From Spirochaetota bacterium (lineage in GTDB: Bacteria > Spirochaetota > UBA4802 > UBA5550): a DNA stretch of 64,000 nt. The stretch covers positions 8,245 through 72,244 of the forward strand of contig JAJRXZ010000020.1 of NCBI GenBank assembly GCA_024276015.1. The letters run 5' to 3'. Under the pieces are notes generated by a model. It saw only the letters and a list, made by a program, of their open reading frames with translations, had not been told where the DNA came from and made no database searches. Below are positions 1 through 36,053 of the stretch, one piece after another (position 1 is the stretch's first letter; each line of letters starts with the position of its first letter). A program made the translations under genes and the position numbers.

Positions 1-1637
1 TTTAGCGCCGCAATCTCTATCCCATCTCCGCCGCTTCCCTTTTCATTGAAAAATCTTTCAGGAAGGTCGTCTTGGGCAGCTGAAAAACCGTTCATTGAAT
101 TCATTATTCGTTCATTGTAATATATCCTCTCTCCGGCTTTATAAAGATCCTGCGCAGATATATCCAATCCCGTAACGCCTGTAAAAGCTCTGGCATATTC
201 TTCAAGAGATGCGGCAAAAAAAATAAACTTGCAGGCTGTGAGAGAATCGATAACTGCATTCAAGTCTTCATTGATTTTAATAATTCTTGCTTTACCATTG
301 AAAGTGAATCTGTCGGTTGCAGCGGGTTTCCTCAGTATTTCATGGGCAACAGGATAAGCCCTTAAATGACAGGCTCCTCTTGTTGAAGTTGCATAAGCCA
401 GAGCCATGCCGTATGCGCCTCTGGGGTCGTAAGCCGACAGTTCCTGTTTTTTTACTGTTATAGCTGCATCGGGTCTGCCCATTTTTATTGAGTACTCCTT
501 TGACCCATTTTTCAGCAGAGCTCCTTCGTTTCTTGAATAGGCAATGTCATACAACAGATTAATTATTTCATGGGGCAATAATCTCTTATCATGTATTTCC
601 GAATAGCATGCAAGTGTGCCTGCTGCCGATATTGTATCCATACCCAATTCATTGCAGATGCGATTTGCATTTACTACGGCGTTTATATCGCTGTTGTTTA
701 AAAGAGCGCTGAAGTGAGACATAGTTTCAAATTCGGGGATCACAGTTTTGTCTCTGCCGATTTTTTTGCATAATATAGTGCATCCCCAGCAGCCGGTTTT
801 TTTTGTGTTATATAATTTTTTATATTGCCAGGCATTCATATTTTCTGCAGCATGAAATCTTGTGGCTCTGAAATTATCGGTGGGCATCATCCTTCGCGAA
901 TGCATAAGGTCATAGAGTGCTCCTGTTCCGAATTCCGATATTCCCAGTTCACCTTTTAATACGGGCGATGCCGAAACAAGGCGAAGGATTTCCTCTCTAG
1001 CAGTCATTGTAAGAGTTTTATCAAAACAATCGATTTTGGCGGTTCCCTCTACATATATATATTTTATTTTTTTTTCTGCCATTACAAGGCCGATTCCGTT
1101 TCTTCCCGAAAAGAAATGCCTGTCAACTGCAATGCCGGCAAACCTGACTCCCTTTTCGGCAGCAGGACCGATTACAGCAGCAGATCCCTTGCGGGGCAGC
1201 TTTTTGAGAACCGAGCTTATCTCCAGACCGGCAGCATCGGAGGCATCAACAAATTCGACATTCTCATTTACAATCTTAATTCCGCAGAGATTTTTGCTTC
1301 GGCCTGTTAAGATAATTCCGTCCCAGCCGGCTCGTTTTATGGAAACGCCAAGTCTGCCCCCTGCGGAAGTGTCACCTATTGTTCCTGTTAGAGGCGATCG
1401 CGACATTATTGTCATTCTGCCGGATGTGGGCACAGGTGTTCCCACAAGAGGCCCCGTAAGAAAGAGAAGGGGCATTTCCGGGTCTGACCAGTCTTTAGTT
1501 ATGTGGGGTCTGAGAAAATATCCCCCCAAGCCTTTGCCGCCAATATATTTTCTGTAGATTTCTATGCCTGGTTCAATGATTTCGGTTTCTTTTGAAGTTA
1601 AGTCGATTTTAAGTATTTTCCCTTTCCAGCCTTTCAT
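1..1637 (-). CDS. Aldehyde:ferredoxin oxidoreductase (tungsten AOR family). Only the N-terminal ~545 aa are in the window; the C-terminus runs past the left edge.
   Basis: I translated the minus strand by hand from the ATG at 1637..1635 and found it open to position 1. The N-terminus MKGWKGKILKIDLTSKETEIIEPG... and internal segments (GIGLVMAEKKIKYIYVEG, DPRGAYGMALAYATSTRGACHLRA, TACKFIFFA) match AOR-family proteins. It is missing from the ORF track because no stop codon lies inside the window. Confidence 0.85.
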   Translation of the reverse strand, partial: MKGWKGKILKIDLTSKETEIIEPGIEIYRKYIGGKGLGGYFLRPHITKDWSDPEMPLLFLTGPLVGTPVPTSGRMTIMSRSPLTGTIGDTSAGGRLGVSIKRAGWDGIILTGRSKNLCGIKIVNENVEFVDASDAAGLEISSVLKKLPRKGSAAVIGPAAEKGVRFAGIAVDRHFFSGRNGIGLVMAEKKIKYIYVEGTAKIDCFDKTLTMTAREEILRLVSASPVLKGELGISEFGTGALYDLMHSRRMMPTDNFRATRFHAAENMNAWQYKKLYNTKKTGCWGCTILCKKIGRDKTVIPEFETMSHFSALLNNSDINAVVNANRICNELGMDTISAAGTLACYSEIHDKRLLPHEIINLLYDIAYSRNEGALLKNGSKEYSIKMGRPDAAITVKKQELSAYDPRGAYGMALAYATSTRGACHLRAYPVAHEILRKPAATDRFTFNGKARIIKINEDLNAVIDSLTACKFIFFAASLEEYARAFTGVTGLDISAQDLYKAGERIYYNERIMNSMNGFSAAQDDLPERFFNEKGSGGDGIEIAAL

Positions 1638-1663
1638 TTTGATACAATTAATATATTCATAAA

Positions 1664-2458
1664 CTATTCAAGCTCCACTGCGATCCTGAAACCGTAATAG
1701 GGGCTTCTTGCCGTGGGGCATCTTCTGAACCTGTATTCCCTTAATCTTTGCAGATCATGGCTTAAAAATGATCCGCCCCGTAAGATCTTGTATGTTTTTC
1801 CATATTCTTTGTTAGGTATACCACCCGGATATTGTTCAAACCAGTCTATTGTCCATTCCCAGATGATGCCCGGTTTAATTATCCCGTATCTCTTTAATTC
1901 ATTTGAAAAATGTTCCGGATGATACTCCTTAATAAAATTCTTTTCTGTTTTTATAATATTCTCTATACCGGGACAACCTGTTAAAGAGGCAAATACTTCC
2001 CATTCTGTTTCGCGGGGCAGTCTGATCTTCTCTCCGCATTTTGATGAGAGCCAGCGGCAGTACATTTCCGCGTCGTTCCAGCTCACCTGAATAACGGGAT
2101 GGATTGTTTCCATCTCACGATAAAGTCGATCCTTTTTGTCGGCAAAAGGTTTTTCCCAGGATACTCCGCTTTTTTTCATCCATCTCTTTTCCCATACCCA
2201 CCCCCATTTCTCTTTCTCAGCTTCAGTGACGTATCCTGTCTCCTTAACAAATTTTCTAAAATCCCGGCAGGTAACAGGTTTTTTAGCAATTGCAATATTA
2301 TCAAGGAAGATTTCCTGCAAAGGGCAGGAATTCTCAAAATATTCCCTTTTTAAATCTGTACCTGACAATAATTGAGATACTGAATTAAGAATGTTCTGCG
2401 ATATTCCTATCAGGTATTTGCCCCGCGGTATTTTTATATAATCATGGGAAGTGAACAT
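1664..2458 (-). CDS. Formylglycine-generating-enzyme (FGE/SUMF1) domain protein
   Basis: 264 aa. The C-terminal half carries FGE-sulfatase family hallmarks: RLPRETEWEVFA, W..EWT.DWF, RGGSFLS, SPYYGFRIA. Confidence 0.7.
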   Translation of the reverse strand: MFTSHDYIKIPRGKYLIGISQNILNSVSQLLSGTDLKREYFENSCPLQEIFLDNIAIAKKPVTCRDFRKFVKETGYVTEAEKEKWGWVWEKRWMKKSGVSWEKPFADKKDRLYREMETIHPVIQVSWNDAEMYCRWLSSKCGEKIRLPRETEWEVFASLTGCPGIENIIKTEKNFIKEYHPEHFSNELKRYGIIKPGIIWEWTIDWFEQYPGGIPNKEYGKTYKILRGGSFLSHDLQRLREYRFRRCPTARSPYYGFRIAVELE

Positions 2459-2471
2459 GTTAGACTGTTGC

Positions 2472-4397
2472 TTAATCTATTTTGTCAAAAAGAGTGTATA
2501 TGTCGCTGCCGTCCTCAGGATATTCCGCACTGAGGGAAGTTATTAATAGCTGAAACTCTTTATTATTAAATGTTGCGGCCATCTCATGAGAAATAGTATT
2601 TGAAAGGGGCACCGAATATTTTTTGTCTTTCCCAGGCAGCACTATTAGTATTTTATTGCGTCCATGGCGGATTGAAAAATCATTATCCGACAATCTGCTT
2701 TTAACAATTTCTTCAAATTTATCAAAAAGTTTTTCAAAGGCTTTATATCCGAAGAGATTATAATATCTCTTGTAATTTTTGATGGATAGAAGAACCAGAG
2801 TTAAAGGGATGTCAAGGTTTTGCGAATTTTTCAGCTCTTCCCGGATCCTGTTAAAGACAATTTCGATATTGTCAATATAGTTTGAGTGTCGTTTCTCTAT
2901 CTCCATCATGTTTTGGATATGACTGAAAATAAAACCTGTAATTCTTTTGATCTTTTTGTCTATCTCTTCGAGAATAGCCGATCCGGCGATCTTATTTATT
3001 ATAATGAATCCAAGAATATTATTTCCTATGGCAAAAGGATAGATCCTGAAAAGAAGCATTTTATCCGTCTGGTCAACAGTAAATGCGCCTGTGACCAGGT
3101 CGGAGTTTCTAAAATTATCAATAAAAACAGGGACGTCGGCTTTATTGATATATCTGATAAAATCGCTGTTATCCTTAAATTTGATATTGGATTTTTTCAT
3201 TGACAGAAGATCTTCGGCTTCCACAAAGATCGGATAGAAATTTCTGTCGTCAGGGTTTTTAATGTACAATGAAAATATCTGTATACCCATTTTGTTAAAC
3301 TCATCCTGCACATCGGCTTCAATTTTTTTCAGGCTGATATTGTGAAGTATTCTCTCTTCAAAACGGTCAACGTCGCGAATATAGCTGAAATCTTTGCTGA
3401 GATTTTCATTTACTTTCATGATCATTTCCATAGTATTAATGTTATTTAACGCTATGGCGGAAACTTCTCCGACAAAATTCAGGAATTCTTTATCTTCTTC
3501 GCTGTACTCTTCCTGGGATACCTTTTCGCCGAGAAGAACAGTACCGAGAATTTCATAGTTTTGTTTCAGAGGAACGAGAAGTTTAACATCTATGGAAATA
3601 TATTTATAGTAATCGTCGATCAGCGCAGGATCGTTTTTGTAATCGTCAACGTCAATAATTTCTTTTTTTTCAAACATTATGCCCAGTATGCCCGATGCGG
3701 GGTCAAATACGAGATCTTCGTTTTCAATTACAACTCCTCTGGATTCAACAATTCTCCATCTGTTTACGTTTTTTGTATCTCTGACCATTATAGACGAAGA
3801 TGAGGCTCCGATCTGCCCCATCAGTGAGAAAAGGATAACATCGTAAAGCTCCTCTGTTGAACTTGCTCTGATAATTTCCTTCTGAATTTCATATAGAAGC
3901 ATGAAGTCGTTGAATTTCAGCTCGTTTGTTTCTTCGTGATCATCGTTTATTTTTTCTTCAGTCAGGGAAGTTTCTTTGTTGTCCCGTTCATTATCGGTTG
4001 TTTTAATATCTTCCCTTTCTTCGTATAGTGCCGAGGCGATTGTTTCATCATATTTTATATGAATATTTTCTTCCTTATCAGGGTTAGGATCATTGATGCT
4101 TTCGGGTTTTTCTTTATTAATTGTTTCGGGGATGTCATATTTCGGTTTGATTTCGTTGTCACTCTGTTCTGCCGAATCGCCAATAGCATCATTAATTTCT
4201 TCTTCAACAAGCAATCCCTCATATTTTTTATACTGATCAGGTTCATCCTGGTTAATGATTTCAAAGTCAGGCGGGGTATCATCCGGTATATCTTCTTCCG
4301 GAGGGCTGATACTCTTTTGGACTGTTTCTTCTGTAAGAGTTTCGTCAAAATGATCAGAGGCTTTTTTATATTTGAATGCTTTTTTTAGAAGACCCAT
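2472..4397 (-). CDS. Acidic N-terminus, GAF-like domain(s), and a degenerate GGDEF domain that keeps an RxxD I-site (putative c-di-GMP-binding effector)
   Basis: 641 aa. The first ~150 aa are D/E/P-rich. The middle has GAF-like segments (...IMVRDTKNVNRWRIVESRG...LLVPLKQNYEILGTVLLGE...). The C-terminus aligns to the GGDEF fold (LTLVLLSIKNYKRYYNLFGYKAFEKL...SRLSDNDFSIRHGRNKILIVLPG...SAEYPEDGSDIYTLFDKID). GG(D/E)EF is replaced by RHGRN, but RLSD sits five residues upstream, as the I-site does in PleD-type cyclases. Its ATG overlaps the stop of the upstream gene (TAATG). Confidence 0.55.
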   Translation of the reverse strand: MGLLKKAFKYKKASDHFDETLTEETVQKSISPPEEDIPDDTPPDFEIINQDEPDQYKKYEGLLVEEEINDAIGDSAEQSDNEIKPKYDIPETINKEKPESINDPNPDKEENIHIKYDETIASALYEEREDIKTTDNERDNKETSLTEEKINDDHEETNELKFNDFMLLYEIQKEIIRASSTEELYDVILFSLMGQIGASSSSIMVRDTKNVNRWRIVESRGVVIENEDLVFDPASGILGIMFEKKEIIDVDDYKNDPALIDDYYKYISIDVKLLVPLKQNYEILGTVLLGEKVSQEEYSEEDKEFLNFVGEVSAIALNNINTMEMIMKVNENLSKDFSYIRDVDRFEERILHNISLKKIEADVQDEFNKMGIQIFSLYIKNPDDRNFYPIFVEAEDLLSMKKSNIKFKDNSDFIRYINKADVPVFIDNFRNSDLVTGAFTVDQTDKMLLFRIYPFAIGNNILGFIIINKIAGSAILEEIDKKIKRITGFIFSHIQNMMEIEKRHSNYIDNIEIVFNRIREELKNSQNLDIPLTLVLLSIKNYKRYYNLFGYKAFEKLFDKFEEIVKSRLSDNDFSIRHGRNKILIVLPGKDKKYSVPLSNTISHEMAATFNNKEFQLLITSLSAEYPEDGSDIYTLFDKID

Positions 4398-6475
4398 TAT
4401 GATATGCCCATATCGTTTAATACTTTAACGTATAAGTCGAAATATTCCGAATTTGCAAAATTTTTTATCGTACTCTCCGGAAGTTTTTCAAAGAGGCCGT
4501 CAAGATAGGTTAAGAGTTTCTTAAGATTCATCTGCTTGTCTTCGGGAAATTCTTTTATAAATCTGTCAACGTCGCTGTTGTCTTCAAGAATAACAATATT
4601 GTCGGTAATGTCCTGAATTTCTTCGTCAGACGGGTCATCTTCAATGGATTTATCTTCTGTGATAAATGCTTCCTGTTCAATTATTTCAAAGTCCTTCTCT
4701 TCATGAAGGATATCCGGAGATCCGATTCCAGCATCTTCTTCTTTATGTTCTGCTTCTTCAATTATTTCGAATCTGTTTTCTTTGAATATTCTGTCAGCAG
4801 CTTCTACTTCCTCTTCAAAGTGTTTTTCTCTTTCCGAATCGTTCTCGTATTTTGCATCGTCATGGACTTCTTTCCCATAAAGGCGTTTAATTTCATTTAT
4901 ATCTTCTTCAAAAACCAGCGCGTTCGTTGACGAGAGATCCTCTTCAATTGAATTTTTATCTTCTTCTGAGAGGCTTCGACTGTCCGGAGTCAGATAGTTG
5001 ATGAATTTTTCTTTAATTTTTGAAAGGTCAATTTTGCCAAAATCGGATTTGATCAATTCATATTCTTTTTCAAGATCGATATGGGAATATTCTTCATGGA
5101 ATAATCTTTCTTCAATGTTATCTATTTCATTAAGGCTTAATCCGAAAAGTTCAATTGCTTTGGATATCTTTTTTTCATCATCCTCTTCTTTGCCAAGATA
5201 GAGGCTGTCTATCTCTTTGATATAATCGCTGTAATCGTCGCCAATAATGGCGTTCTCTATGAAGTCTAATTCGGAATCTCTGTATTTATATTCATCATCT
5301 TCAAAGTCGAGCCAGAGCTCTTTGTATTTATCATCGCTTTGGGTTAAAATGGCTGCCAGTTCCGGATCTTCTCCCGACACATCTATTTTATCCTCTGTCA
5401 GGATTTTAGGTTTGCCTTCAACAATATCGACTATATCTGAAGTAATTTTTTCCAGTTCGTCCTCTTCAAACAATTTTGTTTTTTCACTCTTCTCTTTGTA
5501 TAGAGATTCATCGTCAAAGAAGAGCACATTTTCTTTTCCCGCGGCAATTTTCCGAAGATTTTCCGGGAGAGTTTCCGTTTTAACTTCAACTTCGGATTCG
5601 GGATCTTCATGGGGCTTATCTTTCTGAGGCTGGAATTCATCTGAAACAGCTTCATCAATTTTAGGTTCTTCAATAGTTTCTTCTATTTCAGACGCTTCAA
5701 TATTGTTAAGCTCCGATTCTTCCGCATCCGGTTTCGTATCGGATCTAATATCGGGTTCAGGTTCGGGTTCAGGGTCTTTTTTCTGAATACTTTTTTCTTT
5801 TTCAGAAAGATTGGGCCCGCTCTTTACTTCGGCCTTTGGAGATTTTTCATCGGTTTTTTCGGATAATTCTGTTTCTGCAGTTATAGTATCATCACTTTTA
5901 TCAATGGTATCCTCTTTTAAAGGAATAAGGTCGAATTCTTCCAGACCTAATATCAGGTCATCCTCGGTGAGGAATAAAATGTCTTCATTTGCAATTGCTT
6001 CTGCTTCTTTCAAGTCTATGTTTCCTATGTCGTTAATATTAAAGTCTTCAGGTAATTTATCTATCATACCTTCGGGAATATTAATTTTTATTTCAGAAGT
6101 TTTGCCGGTTTTAGTGTCCTCTATGTTTTGATCTTCTCTGTTTCCCGGCGTTTCTTTATTATTTTCCTTTATTGAATCTTCCCGGTCTTCTGTATTATCC
6201 ATTGCCGCTTCAGACAGATCCTTCTGAACCGGACTGTCCTTTTGCTTAATTGCGCTTTCTTCCGATGTTGACTCTTCGGCTGCATTATAGGGATCATCCT
6301 TATCTCTTTCCGATTCTTCGCTGTGATGGCCTTCTCCGGATACGAAGTCCTGATCATTTATAGTAATATCTTCTTCTGTAAAATTATTACGGGTAATTGT
6401 GTCAGTCTTTATATCAGAATCTTCAAAGATATCCCTGTGAATATCATTTATATTATTCTCCTTGATCTCTTTCAT
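4397..6475 (-). CDS. Poly-acidic protein (692 aa, extremely D/E-rich, low complexity), hypothetical
   Basis: Long minus-strand ORF. D+E are dense throughout, with runs such as PEPEPEPD. It is translationally coupled to the GAF/GGDEF-like gene downstream. I did not recognise any catalytic domain. Confidence 0.55.
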   Translation of the reverse strand: MKEIKENNINDIHRDIFEDSDIKTDTITRNNFTEEDITINDQDFVSGEGHHSEESERDKDDPYNAAEESTSEESAIKQKDSPVQKDLSEAAMDNTEDREDSIKENNKETPGNREDQNIEDTKTGKTSEIKINIPEGMIDKLPEDFNINDIGNIDLKEAEAIANEDILFLTEDDLILGLEEFDLIPLKEDTIDKSDDTITAETELSEKTDEKSPKAEVKSGPNLSEKEKSIQKKDPEPEPEPDIRSDTKPDAEESELNNIEASEIEETIEEPKIDEAVSDEFQPQKDKPHEDPESEVEVKTETLPENLRKIAAGKENVLFFDDESLYKEKSEKTKLFEEDELEKITSDIVDIVEGKPKILTEDKIDVSGEDPELAAILTQSDDKYKELWLDFEDDEYKYRDSELDFIENAIIGDDYSDYIKEIDSLYLGKEEDDEKKISKAIELFGLSLNEIDNIEERLFHEEYSHIDLEKEYELIKSDFGKIDLSKIKEKFINYLTPDSRSLSEEDKNSIEEDLSSTNALVFEEDINEIKRLYGKEVHDDAKYENDSEREKHFEEEVEAADRIFKENRFEIIEEAEHKEEDAGIGSPDILHEEKDFEIIEQEAFITEDKSIEDDPSDEEIQDITDNIVILEDNSDVDRFIKEFPEDKQMNLKKLLTYLDGLFEKLPESTIKNFANSEYFDLYVKVLNDMGIS

Positions 6476-6764
6476 TTTTTATCTCAACATGCACACTCAA
6501 TAATATGTATTCTTTGTAAAAGTTGTCAATTATTTGTTAAGCAAATTGTCGCCGATTATTTTTTTTTATTAAGTTTTTTTATTATTTTATTATAATGTAA
6601 TAAAATATCAGCAACATGTTCAATGTGTTCTGATTTTTTTAAGAATAACATTAAATTTTGCAAATAATAAAATTTATATCTATAAAAATTTAACCTGTAA
6701 GCATTATAATTCAATTTATTATCGGCATATTTCTTTTTTTTATTTATTTTATATCAATGATAAG

Positions 6765-6803
6765 TAATATAAAAGAAAGAGGATGTCTCTGTTGACATCC
6801 TCC
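6765..6803 (-). terminator. Intrinsic terminator closing the atp operon
   Basis: 8-bp perfect stem AGGATGTC / GACATCCT (6780-6787 and 6794-6801) with loop TCTGTT. On the minus strand it is followed by the T-rich stretch tctttctttt. It lies 27 bp past the atpC stop. Confidence 0.7.
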
Positions 6804-6829
6804 TTGGGGCAGATATATTTATTATGATC

Positions 6830-7228
6830 CTATCTCTTTGCCACTTTTAATCTGATTTTAAGCTTATGTTCTTCTGCGCTGAGAATCAAACCTTCTTCAC
6901 TAAAGGGATCAATCCTGTTTTCTCTGATTTCCCGGATCTTTTTACTGATCTCGTCGCTGTCCAGTTCATCTTTTGTAAATGCGTTTTCAGCAAGGATATT
7001 CATTTTGTTATCAAATATCTCTACCAGCCCCCCTTCAACAACAAGATAATCGGTTTTGTCTCCGTTTCTTAGTCTTATCTCACCGTATCCCAATTGAGTG
7101 ATCAGCGGTGTGTGGTTGATTAAGAAACCCATCTCACCGTCGTATGCCTGTACAACTGCAAAGTCTGCTTCGCCTTCATAGAGATATTTTTCAGGTGTAA
7201 GTATGCTGCATTTGATCTTTTTTCTCAT
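6830..7228 (-). CDS. atpC: F-type ATP synthase epsilon subunit
   Basis: 132 aa. N-terminal beta-sandwich motif (LTPEKYLYEGEADFAVVQAYDGEMGFL) and C-terminal helical region. It is the last gene of the atp cluster. Confidence 0.85.
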   Translation of the reverse strand: MRKKIKCSILTPEKYLYEGEADFAVVQAYDGEMGFLINHTPLITQLGYGEIRLRNGDKTDYLVVEGGLVEIFDNKMNILAENAFTKDELDSDEISKKIREIRENRIDPFSEEGLILSAEEHKLKIRLKVAKR

Positions 7229-7231
7229 TAT

Positions 7232-8650
<1,419 letters not shown>

Positions 8651-35578: not shown

Positions 35579-35670
35579 AATAAGAATTAAGCTTTATTCC
35601 AAGAAATATTATTTAATTATACTACTTTTATTTGACAAAATATGATAGCTTAAATTAATTAAAAACAGAT

Positions 35671-35754
35671 GCCGCGATGGCGGAATTGGTAGACGCGCTA
35701 GGTTCAGGGTCTAGTGAGCAATAGCTTGTGAGGGTTCGACTCCCTCTCGCGGCA
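35671..35754 (+). tRNA. tRNA-Leu (anticodon CAG)
   Basis: I folded it by hand. Acceptor stem GCCGCGA/TCGCGGC, D-arm GCGG..CGC, anticodon stem CTAGG/TCTAG with loop TTCAGGG (anticodon CAG), a long variable arm, T-arm GAGGG-TTCGACT-CCCTC, and discriminator A. CCA is not encoded. Confidence 0.85.
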
Positions 35755-36053
35755 TATTCATTGACACCTTCATTTTCAGGGCTTTCATGCCTCTGATATT
35801 TATTTAAGATGAACTGCCTGTATATTTATGCGGATCTTCGATTTTAATTAAAGAAGTGAAGCCTAAAATGCATTGAAGAATATTGAGAAGAGTTCCGAAA
35901 TATTATAGTATACCGATCATCATTGAAAATTTCTATATCAATGAATCGGTATATGATCTGATCAGGGTTTTGTCCTTTTTAAAGGGACAAAATCGATGCT
36001 TTTTGATATAACTAATATTATGCTTATATTTTTTTATGTAAACAGGGGCGGAT

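Follow-up and report, generated by a model that had tools for sequence, protein, structure and literature searches.

Two adjacent genes in a 64,000-nucleotide stretch of DNA from a Spirochaetota bacterium (assembly GCA_024276015.1, contig JAJRXZ010000020.1, positions 8,245 to 72,244 of the forward strand), referred to here as the window, represent a deeply conserved spirochaete operon in which an unusual pseudo-GGDEF domain is encoded beside an obligate polyanionic neighbour. Gene A encodes the polyanion, and gene B, directly after it on the minus strand, encodes a protein with GAF-type modules and the GGDEF-like domain. The two open reading frames (ORFs), their coordinates and the single base shared at a TAATG sequence had been described in an earlier note made from the sequence alone, and all three are confirmed (Table 1).

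The pair is real, phylum-wide in spirochaetes and tightly juxtaposed, and often forms a triplet with a third gene, gene C. A scan of species-representative genomes gave 80 loci, almost all from Spirochaetota metagenome-assembled genomes (MAGs), many of which are labelled Leptospirales or Leptospiraceae; the nearest relatives of the window are uncultured Spirochaetota MAGs. Co-occurrence in related genomes had been proposed as a check, and by tblastn with the window proteins B directly follows A in about 78 of the 84 related loci. Loci that lack B in this search are contig ends, or were recovered later by ORF analysis where the contig continues. Gene C directly follows B in about 40 of the 84 loci, including loci without an upstream ATP synthase (atp) operon. 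Gene tables of three unrelated contigs display the same order, (atp)-TP_0179-GAF/GGDEF-FGE-sulfatase, where the last three are the A, B and C genes; one of the three has no upstream atp genes.

The distance from the stop codon of A to the start codon of B is -1 to +5 nucleotides (nt) in 67 of 68 loci, with a mode of +2, and the tight coupling that had been proposed for the window thus holds in essentially every related locus. Further loci outside these 68 have (M/V)GL[LR]EKA starts at 1-5 nt after the A stop, which brings the total to about 75 spirochaete loci with a single exception to the -1 to +5 nt spacing. The sole long spacer, an AT-rich sequence of 136 nt, is in L080 (8780-8917), where A is short (269 aa by ORF call). 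A divergent sub-family (L063, L064, L067 and L068) has an A of about 447 aa, a B that starts MGLREKAERILRGKF and is 24-27% identical to that of the window, and a junction of +2 nt. These four loci have no upstream F-type atpC, only a 27%-identical AtpD-like ATPase several kb away.

A programmed frameshift or read-through that would produce an A-B fusion was ruled out, as the frame of B varies (spacings of -1, 0, 1, 2, 3, 4 and 5 nt). In the window, B is not preceded by a recognisable Shine-Dalgarno sequence; the 17 nt before it pair with the anti-Shine-Dalgarno sequence at -2.4 kcal/mol, which is the random median. Family-wide, Shine-Dalgarno strength before B (median -3.95 kcal/mol) does not differ from that of a crude control (-4.05), and the lack of such a signal can be claimed for the window only. 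The weak signal there fits initiation of B by ribosomes that have just terminated on A.

Gene A, a polyanionic protein assigned to the TP_0179 family

By homology, protein A is assigned to the uncharacterised TP_0179 family (PF27359), which Pfam names after the Treponema pallidum hypothetical protein TP0179. Homology searching with A yielded 23 full-length relatives, which come without exception from Spirochaetota or unnamed metagenomic bins, and several of these carry a precomputed PF27359 domain. A is homologous to the carriers, among them P0002 (E=6e-107, 85% coverage) and P0017, and its C-terminal domain is common to the distant TP_0179 proteins P0043-P0046. The database record of A itself has no precomputed domain, so the assignment rests on homology to the carriers. 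No family was found at E<=1 in Pfam and NCBIfam, the Pfam copy searched being one without the PF27359 model; six other members of the family had no match in it either. An exhaustive profile hidden Markov model (HMM) search with A gave 147 clusters (50% identity) at E<=1e-30 and 1215 at E<=1e-3, and E-values of the family profile reach 1e-180. No significant relative was found in the PDB by sequence profile or by Foldseek, although the low-confidence model makes the fold search near meaningless. TP0179 itself is mentioned in the literature only as a 'hypothetical protein' that contains a recombinant segment.

That A is a large polyanionic protein is borne out by its net charge of -129. It had also been described as almost entirely Asp and Glu, which overstates a composition of 30.8% Asp+Glu and 12.1% Lys+Arg. 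The statement that it has no recognisable fold stands in part: the AlphaFold2 model has a mean pLDDT (the per-residue confidence score) of 48, is mostly disordered and resembles no known fold, but there are five conserved blocks, including a C-terminal helical domain.

The blocks, which emerged from alignments of 23 and then 65 orthologues, lie between variable, gap-rich acidic linkers, and only they are helical in the model. The helices of the block 3 region (400-478) have a pLDDT of about 57-68, and the C-terminal helices (633-688) are moderately confident at 73-78. The C-terminal domain is the most conserved part of A (column conservation 0.76-0.83) and the sole sequence region that it has in common with Treponema-type TP_0179 proteins. 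Four of the blocks display a hydrophobic run followed by two or three acidic residues (ILFLTEDD, VLFFDDES, ALVFEEDI and IVILEDNSD), and short family members keep the first and last blocks. The 65 distinct intact orthologues are 434-864 aa in length, with 22-31% Asp+Glu and net charges of -46 to -186; as linker sequence varies across them while the charge stays acidic, acidity is maintained. Protein A is genuine and under selection, a largely disordered polyanion in which short modules are folded or able to fold. One variable linker carries a Pro-Glu run (PEPEPEPD, residues 235-243, positions 5747-5773) that is not conserved in orthologues.

The profile search with the A family added only four distant proteins (P0043-P0046), which are of the Treponema-like TP_0179 type. 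Apart from extreme acidity (29% Asp+Glu), what these have in common with A is the C-terminal domain, of the form LK.xL.Y[LM]D.L[FL]E.LPE..I..FA.SEYF..Y.K[LV]; in the Treponema type it reads ...VLSYMDxLLESLPEEKIEEFAKSEYFxxYKKLFxELGL. The N-terminus differs from that of A (PSIY..RG.IGS..ELD.YGVWVK), and blocks 1-4 are absent. As in A loci, the next gene starts with MGLL at close distance (0 or -1 nt from the stop), but it encodes a protein of 119-146 aa that starts MGLLN[KR]A and is followed by MptE-like (PF01973) genes, instead of a GAF-GGDEF protein. The neighbourhood also includes divIC, divergently upstream, and a 'TP_0183_C' gene. No similarity of the small protein to the rest of B was detected. 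The idea that it represents a minimal GGDEF-like domain was dropped, since hhalign against the B profile gave the MGLL stretch only (~2% probability) and Pfam gave nothing; single-sequence queries of this kind have low power.

Gene B and its GGDEF-like domain

Protein B starts with a conserved motif, M-G-L-L-[E/K]-[K/R]-A-L-x-Y-K, usually continued as ...G..T[LI][IM]D.I.GPAET. M1, G2, L3 and A7 are invariant in 62 orthologues. The MGLL codons differ at synonymous sites among loci, and the motif is duplicated inside two proteins, the Treponema-type protein of L086 (RGLLNRVSQKM) and the Leptospira homologue LIC_11247 (GFLQKALGMRK); it thus acts as a protein motif and not as a translation signal. 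AlphaFold2 predicts a helix at residues 3-24. A role of this helix as a membrane-targeting amphipathic helix was considered and dropped, as its hydrophobic moment (0.36, against 0.23 +/- 0.12 for shuffles, 13% of which reach 0.36) is not unusual; nor does B contain a hydrophobic segment. An acidic stretch of 150 aa at the start of B had been noted, and there are indeed 44 Asp/Glu in residues 1-150, with a pLDDT below 50 at residues 14-158.

The prediction of GAF modules and a degenerate GGDEF domain is upheld by the domain models. PF13185 (GAF_2) matches residues 179-317 at E=1.7e-7, and PF00990 matches residues 509-640 with 37.4 bits against a gathering cut-off of 23.8 (E=2.7e-9). The PF00990 match spans profile positions 10-147 of 161, so that the last helix of the model is absent, and TIGR00254 stays below its cut-off (31.7 against 37.4). 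The AlphaFold2 model, built with 19 homologues, has a mean pLDDT of 72.8 and displays two alpha/beta modules of GAF type (154-350 and 356-528), both of which end in a helix of ~50 residues, and a GGDEF-like alpha/beta domain at 532-640. The pLDDT is about 74-91 over the folded part of the first GAF domain and 85-94 in the second. Foldseek matched the model best to phytochrome-GGDEF cyclases, to the tandem GAFs of PDE5, PDE2, PDE6 and CyaB2 (E of 1e-11 to 1e-9) and to the cAMP-bound GAF of Lcd1 (5w10; TM-score 0.79 normalised to the target); Leptospira Lcd1 is a cAMP-activated GAF-GGDEF cyclase. B is thus predicted to be a tandem-GAF protein, with the second GAF supported by its fold only. In these proteins, as in B, GAF modules are joined by long helices to a C-terminal output domain; their output enzymes are active, in contrast to that of B, and they are only 9-20% identical to it.

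The register of the GGDEF-like domain was set by pairwise HMMER alignments to the solved GGDEF domains 6hbz, 4wxw, 4wxo, 3icl and 6eib. All five printed alignments place 'fsiRHGRNKIlivlpg' of B opposite 'xxaRyGGEEFvlllp' (R-Y/I/V-G-G-E/D-E/K-F), so that the signature position is occupied by GRNKI (579-583). The earlier note had RHGRN at this position, which is two residues off. It had also taken RLSD (568-571) as the RxxD I-site five residues upstream. RLSD lies seven residues upstream of the signature position, and the true I-site position reads SDND. The five concordant alignments and the family alignment together rule out that register.

The metal-binding positions are altered as well. The columns S538-I-K540-N-Y-K543 stand opposite D-[ILV]-D-[HN]-F-K in four of the five solved domains and opposite DIDNFK in the fifth. 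Ser538 replaces the first metal-binding Asp of the DxDxFK strand, and Lys540 replaces the next acidic position; position 538 is Ser or Thr in 58 of 62 orthologues, and position 540 is Lys in 61. As the signature and the metal Asp positions are both replaced, B cannot be a cyclase, and judged by its sequence the domain is catalytically dead and without a canonical I-site. K540, N541, K543, R544, R577, R580, K582, K590, K592 and K593 are near-invariant in the 62 orthologues. Conserved basic residues thus stand where cyclases have acidic metal ligands, which suggests that the site has been turned to the binding of an anionic ligand.

A homologue of B is known from Leptospira interrogans. A 2026 census of c-di-GMP (cyclic dimeric GMP) genes in this species lists LIC_11247 among four newly recognised GGDEF proteins and predicts it to be inactive, with a degenerate GGDEF (PMC12943098). 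The protein (UniProt Q72SX5) is annotated 'cGMP-specific phosphodiesterase'. Its sequence, taken from the supplement of that paper, aligns with residues 161-629 of B (BLASTP E=1e-27, 24% identity). As in B, there is an MGLL start (MGLLERVSKLV), an acidic linker, a GAF domain, a second GAF-like region and a degenerate GGDEF-like domain. It differs in the GGDEF position, which reads GQGKY in place of DRNKI/GRNKI, and in the duplication of the MGLL-like motif. LIC_11247 is 20-25% identical to every B in the set, including those of MAGs labelled Leptospira, and being equally distant from all of them it represents a homologue of the same architecture and not a proven orthologue. By locus number, the gene upstream of it is LIC11246/LA2773, a 'conserved hypothetical'. 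No functional studies of TP0179, LIC11244-LIC11247 or LA2772/LA2773, and no paper on the A-B pairing, were found in the literature.

Function of the pair

The reading preferred here, which is given about an even chance, mostly on the strength of its first part, is that A and B constitute one functional unit and form a 1:1 sensor-scaffold complex. With a stop-start junction of -1 to +5 nt, translation of B would depend on ribosomes finishing A; the two proteins would then be made in about 1:1 amounts at the same place and would enter one complex. B would be a small-molecule sensor through its GAF domains, for which a cyclic nucleotide is the precedent as ligand. A would provide the disordered polyanionic scaffold, or the output, and would bind B and further partners through its conserved modules. 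Of the parts of B, the pseudo-GGDEF domain, with basic residues in place of the acidic ones of cyclases, would be the likeliest to hold an anionic ligand or an acidic motif of A. As the C-terminal domain of A and the MGLL start of the next product persist across the phylum, they are the most likely docking pair.

Evolutionary rates are consistent with this reading. In a distance comparison of 31 species with atpC and atpD distances regressed out, the partial r is 0.72 between the A C-terminal domain and GAF1 of B and 0.63 between the A C-terminal domain and the GGDEF-like domain, against 0.67 for the two B domains with each other. These positive correlations fit co-evolving partners.

Several points weigh against a 1:1 complex. 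The correlations, which are not probabilities, could reflect shared lineage-specific rate shifts. The proposed docking pair itself, the A C-terminus and the B N-terminus, has a partial r of -0.31 and no mirror-tree signal, and the N-terminal helix of B is, as noted above, not unusually amphipathic. Physical contact between A and B is deduced indirectly. A cyclic nucleotide is the GAF ligand that precedent would suggest, and the idea that the Lys/Arg-rich pseudo-active site binds an anionic ligand comes from sequence only. Tight spacing can also evolve for expression balance alone, without complex formation.

A bolder form of the sensor-scaffold model may be put forward as speculation, with the odds clearly against it. 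Here, the TP_0179 C-terminal domain and the GLLxKA peptide would be a phylum-wide docking pair, assembled as the ribosome passes between the genes, that tethers interchangeable effectors to a polyanionic scaffold. The effector would be the tandem-GAF/pseudo-GGDEF sensor in the Leptospira-like case and the small protein in the Treponema-like case. The scaffold itself would act as an organising centre or condensate specific to spirochaetes, its state set by the GAF ligand, with the basic pseudo-active site gripping acidic motifs.

It is also conceivable, if unlikely, that A and B have separate functions and lie in one operon for co-expression only, A being a hub or scaffold like PopZ, HubP and FimV, and B an independent GAF sensor. 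Treponema-type TP_0179 proteins have no GAF-GGDEF neighbour and are found beside divIC and MptE-like genes, which indicates that most of B is not needed for the A family to function. In composition and architecture, A also resembles hub proteins, with a long acidic disordered region, short modules and a small terminal helical domain. This likeness is one of working principle only: no sequence or fold similarity of A to PopZ, HubP or FimV was detected (their models are not among Pfam/NCBIfam matches at E<=1), and A has no LysM or transmembrane anchor. A separation of functions does not account well for the junction and MGLL start, which are retained also in loci with an otherwise different downstream protein, or for A and B rates that co-vary as strongly as those of the two B domains.

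The earlier note had proposed that B is a c-di-GMP effector through a preserved RxxD in its degenerate GGDEF domain and signals to the polyanionic A. Degenerate-GGDEF proteins with I-sites, such as PelD and PopA, are established c-di-GMP receptors, and there too a catalytically dead GGDEF serves as a regulatory module, preceded in PelD by a GAF domain. Their RxxD I-site is intact, whereas the B position reads SDND/SDxD; PelD is membrane-anchored, whereas B lacks any hydrophobic segment and carries two GAF domains; and neither PelD nor PopA has a polyanionic partner. The RxxD match in B is a product of the two-residue misregister. At the true I-site Arg position, 62 distinct orthologues have Ser (42), Gly (7), Ala (6) or Tyr (3) in 58 cases, and as none of these four commonest residues is Arg, B has no canonical I-site. 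Conservation nearby is nonetheless high, with Asp573 in 60 of the 62 and Arg (50) or Lys (11) at position 568, and R568 and D573 may form a non-canonical nucleotide site near the I-site position. The effector model would now need such a site, as the canonical position is SDND, and appears improbable. The homologue LIC_11247 reads SEVD at the aligned position, and among inactive L. interrogans GGDEF proteins the census credits an allosteric site to LIC_11706 only (PMC12943098).

A third alternative assigns the pair an accessory or regulatory role for the F-type ATP synthase, whose operon lies upstream of A on the same strand; atpD-atpC is directly upstream of A in about 60 of the 84 loci (tblastn). 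The spacer between atpC and A (6476-6829) is 354 nt long with ~27% GC. The strong terminator-like hairpin directly after atpC probably ends the atp transcript before A, and the sigma-70-like sequence before A is the best promoter-like match in a scan of positions 1400-7400. The terminator and promoter calls are consensus matches only, and the total of promoter-like matches across the region is not above shuffled expectation. A further near-consensus promoter-like site is present on the plus strand of the spacer (6792-6819). A-B-C is found with unrelated upstream genes (nikR-like, cytochromes) in L003/L004 and in about 20 other loci, and Treponema-type loci have no nearby atp genes. From the terminator after atpC, the near-consensus promoter before A and the occurrence of A-B-C without upstream atp genes, we infer that A starts its own transcript and that A-B(-C) would be a separate transcription unit. 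A role in ATP synthase function thus seems highly improbable.

Finally, the notion that ORF A is a chance open frame in AT-rich, purine-rich DNA, to which its low-complexity composition, its low AlphaFold2 confidence and the lack of a match in the Pfam/NCBIfam copies searched might point, is effectively refuted by its conservation, namely intact orthologous ORFs in 65 distinct genomes with conserved blocks and linkers that stay acidic, profile E-values down to 1e-180, and a curated Pfam family.

Neighbouring genes and significance for spirochaetes

Gene C starts 13 nt past the stop of B. It has a PF03781 FGE-sulfatase domain (E=7.6e-32) and no signal peptide. It cannot be assigned to a specific enzyme, as the NCBIfam equivalog scores (EgtB, SenA, OvoA) all fall well short of the cut-offs. 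The A and B proteins of the window contain zero cysteines, which rules them out as classical FGE substrates. An aldehyde:ferredoxin oxidoreductase-like gene (MKGWKGKILKIDLTSKE...) follows gene C at 1-1640 on the minus strand and runs off the window start; in the closest related contig, L002, the FGE-like gene is likewise followed by such a gene. In L001 (14720-17725) and L003 (12751-14658), A-B-C is followed by PAS-SpoIIE (PP2C phosphatase) and PAS-HATPase_c genes, which are absent from the window; they hint at a partner-switching or kinase module nearby in some loci. Rfam and ARAGORN searches over the 64-kb window gave a tRNA-Leu (anticodon CAG, 35670-35755, plus strand) as the sole RNA gene, and A, B and C have no match among PADLOC anti-phage defence models.

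Table 1. Features of the A-B locus. Positions are those of the window, except where a related locus is named.
Feature	Positions	Strand	Basis or description
Gene A	4397-6475	-	ORF, 692 aa
Gene B	2472-4397	-	ORF, 641 aa
TAATG junction, one base common to the TAA stop of A and the ATG of B	4395-4399	-	Read in sequence (...ATC ATA ATG GGT...)
A N-block, residues 136-187	5915-6070	-	KLPEDFN..IGNIDLxEAExIANEDILFLTEDDLIxGLEEFDLIPL; invariant and near-invariant columns
A block 2, residues 315-362	5390-5533	-	VLFFDDESL + LEKITSDI helix; weakly conserved
A block 3, residues 385-470	5066-5323	-	DFEDDEYKYRDSELDFI..DYSDYI.EID ... ELFGL ... IE..LF.EEY; predicted helical
A block 4, residues 490-535	4871-5008	-	Y..P...SLS.E.K.SIE.DLSS..ALVFEEDI.EI
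A C-terminal domain, residues 618-692	4400-4624	-	ITD.IVILED..DVDRF..FPE.K...LK.LL.YLDGLFEKLPE..IK.FA.SEYFDLY.KVLN..G
B N-terminal conserved motif	4326-4397	-	MGLLKKAFKYKK...; consensus MGLLEKALxYK..IN..G..TLIDRI.GPAET
B acidic disordered linker, residues 25-158	3924-4325	-	Length and sequence variable, gapped columns across family
B GAF1 and long C-terminal connecting helix, residues 159-350	3348-3923	-	PF13185, AlphaFold2, Foldseek
B second GAF-like domain and connecting helix, residues 351-528	2814-3347	-	Fold only, no Pfam match
B GGDEF-like pseudo-cyclase domain, residues 529-641	2475-2813	-	PF00990
G579-R-N-K-I583, equivalent of the GG(D/E)EF signature	2649-2663	-	HMMER alignments; family consensus D-R-[NH]-K-[FI]
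S570-D-N-D573, position of the canonical RxxD I-site	2679-2690	-	HMMER register; Arg position is Ser
Gene C, cytoplasmic FGE-sulfatase-fold protein, 264 aa	1664-2458	-	ORF, PF03781
Sigma-70-like promoter	6500-6529	-	TTGACA-18 nt-TATTAT, 11/12 matches; ~25 nt 5' of the A ATG
Intrinsic-terminator-like hairpin directly after atpC	6776-6805	-	12-bp stem, 5 GC pairs, then CTTTTATATT
atpC	6830-7228	-	Then, further upstream of A, atpD, atpG, atpA, atpH, atpF
Treponema-type downstream genes	L085 9606-9965; L086 4490-4930		One or two MptE-like (PF01973) genes then follow

It had been suggested that no module of this kind is described. This is true of the pairing itself, but the A family is present in Pfam as PF27359 and the B homologue LIC_11247 is catalogued, so the claim of complete novelty is softened; gene C, the conserved MGLL start and the phylum-wide distribution had not been part of that account. 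The A-B pair resembles a known class, that of degenerate-GGDEF signalling proteins which act through partners, and does not so far imply a new mechanism.

Conservation of the pair extends across a whole phylum, which includes the agents of leptospirosis (LIC_11247 and its neighbour) and syphilis (TP0179 and its neighbour). Protein B represents a clear case of a GGDEF fold that has lost its catalytic and feedback sites while conserving a new basic residue set, and because of these losses c-di-GMP gene censuses should not count the B subfamily as cyclases or as I-site receptors. For the TP_0179 family there is now a concrete hypothesis, namely a partner that is encoded immediately downstream and recognised via its MGLL N-terminus. 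Should the scaffold role not hold, A-B remains a well-defined conserved operon of unknown function; if A is a scaffold regulated by a GAF ligand, the pair would represent a new organising principle for spirochaete cells.

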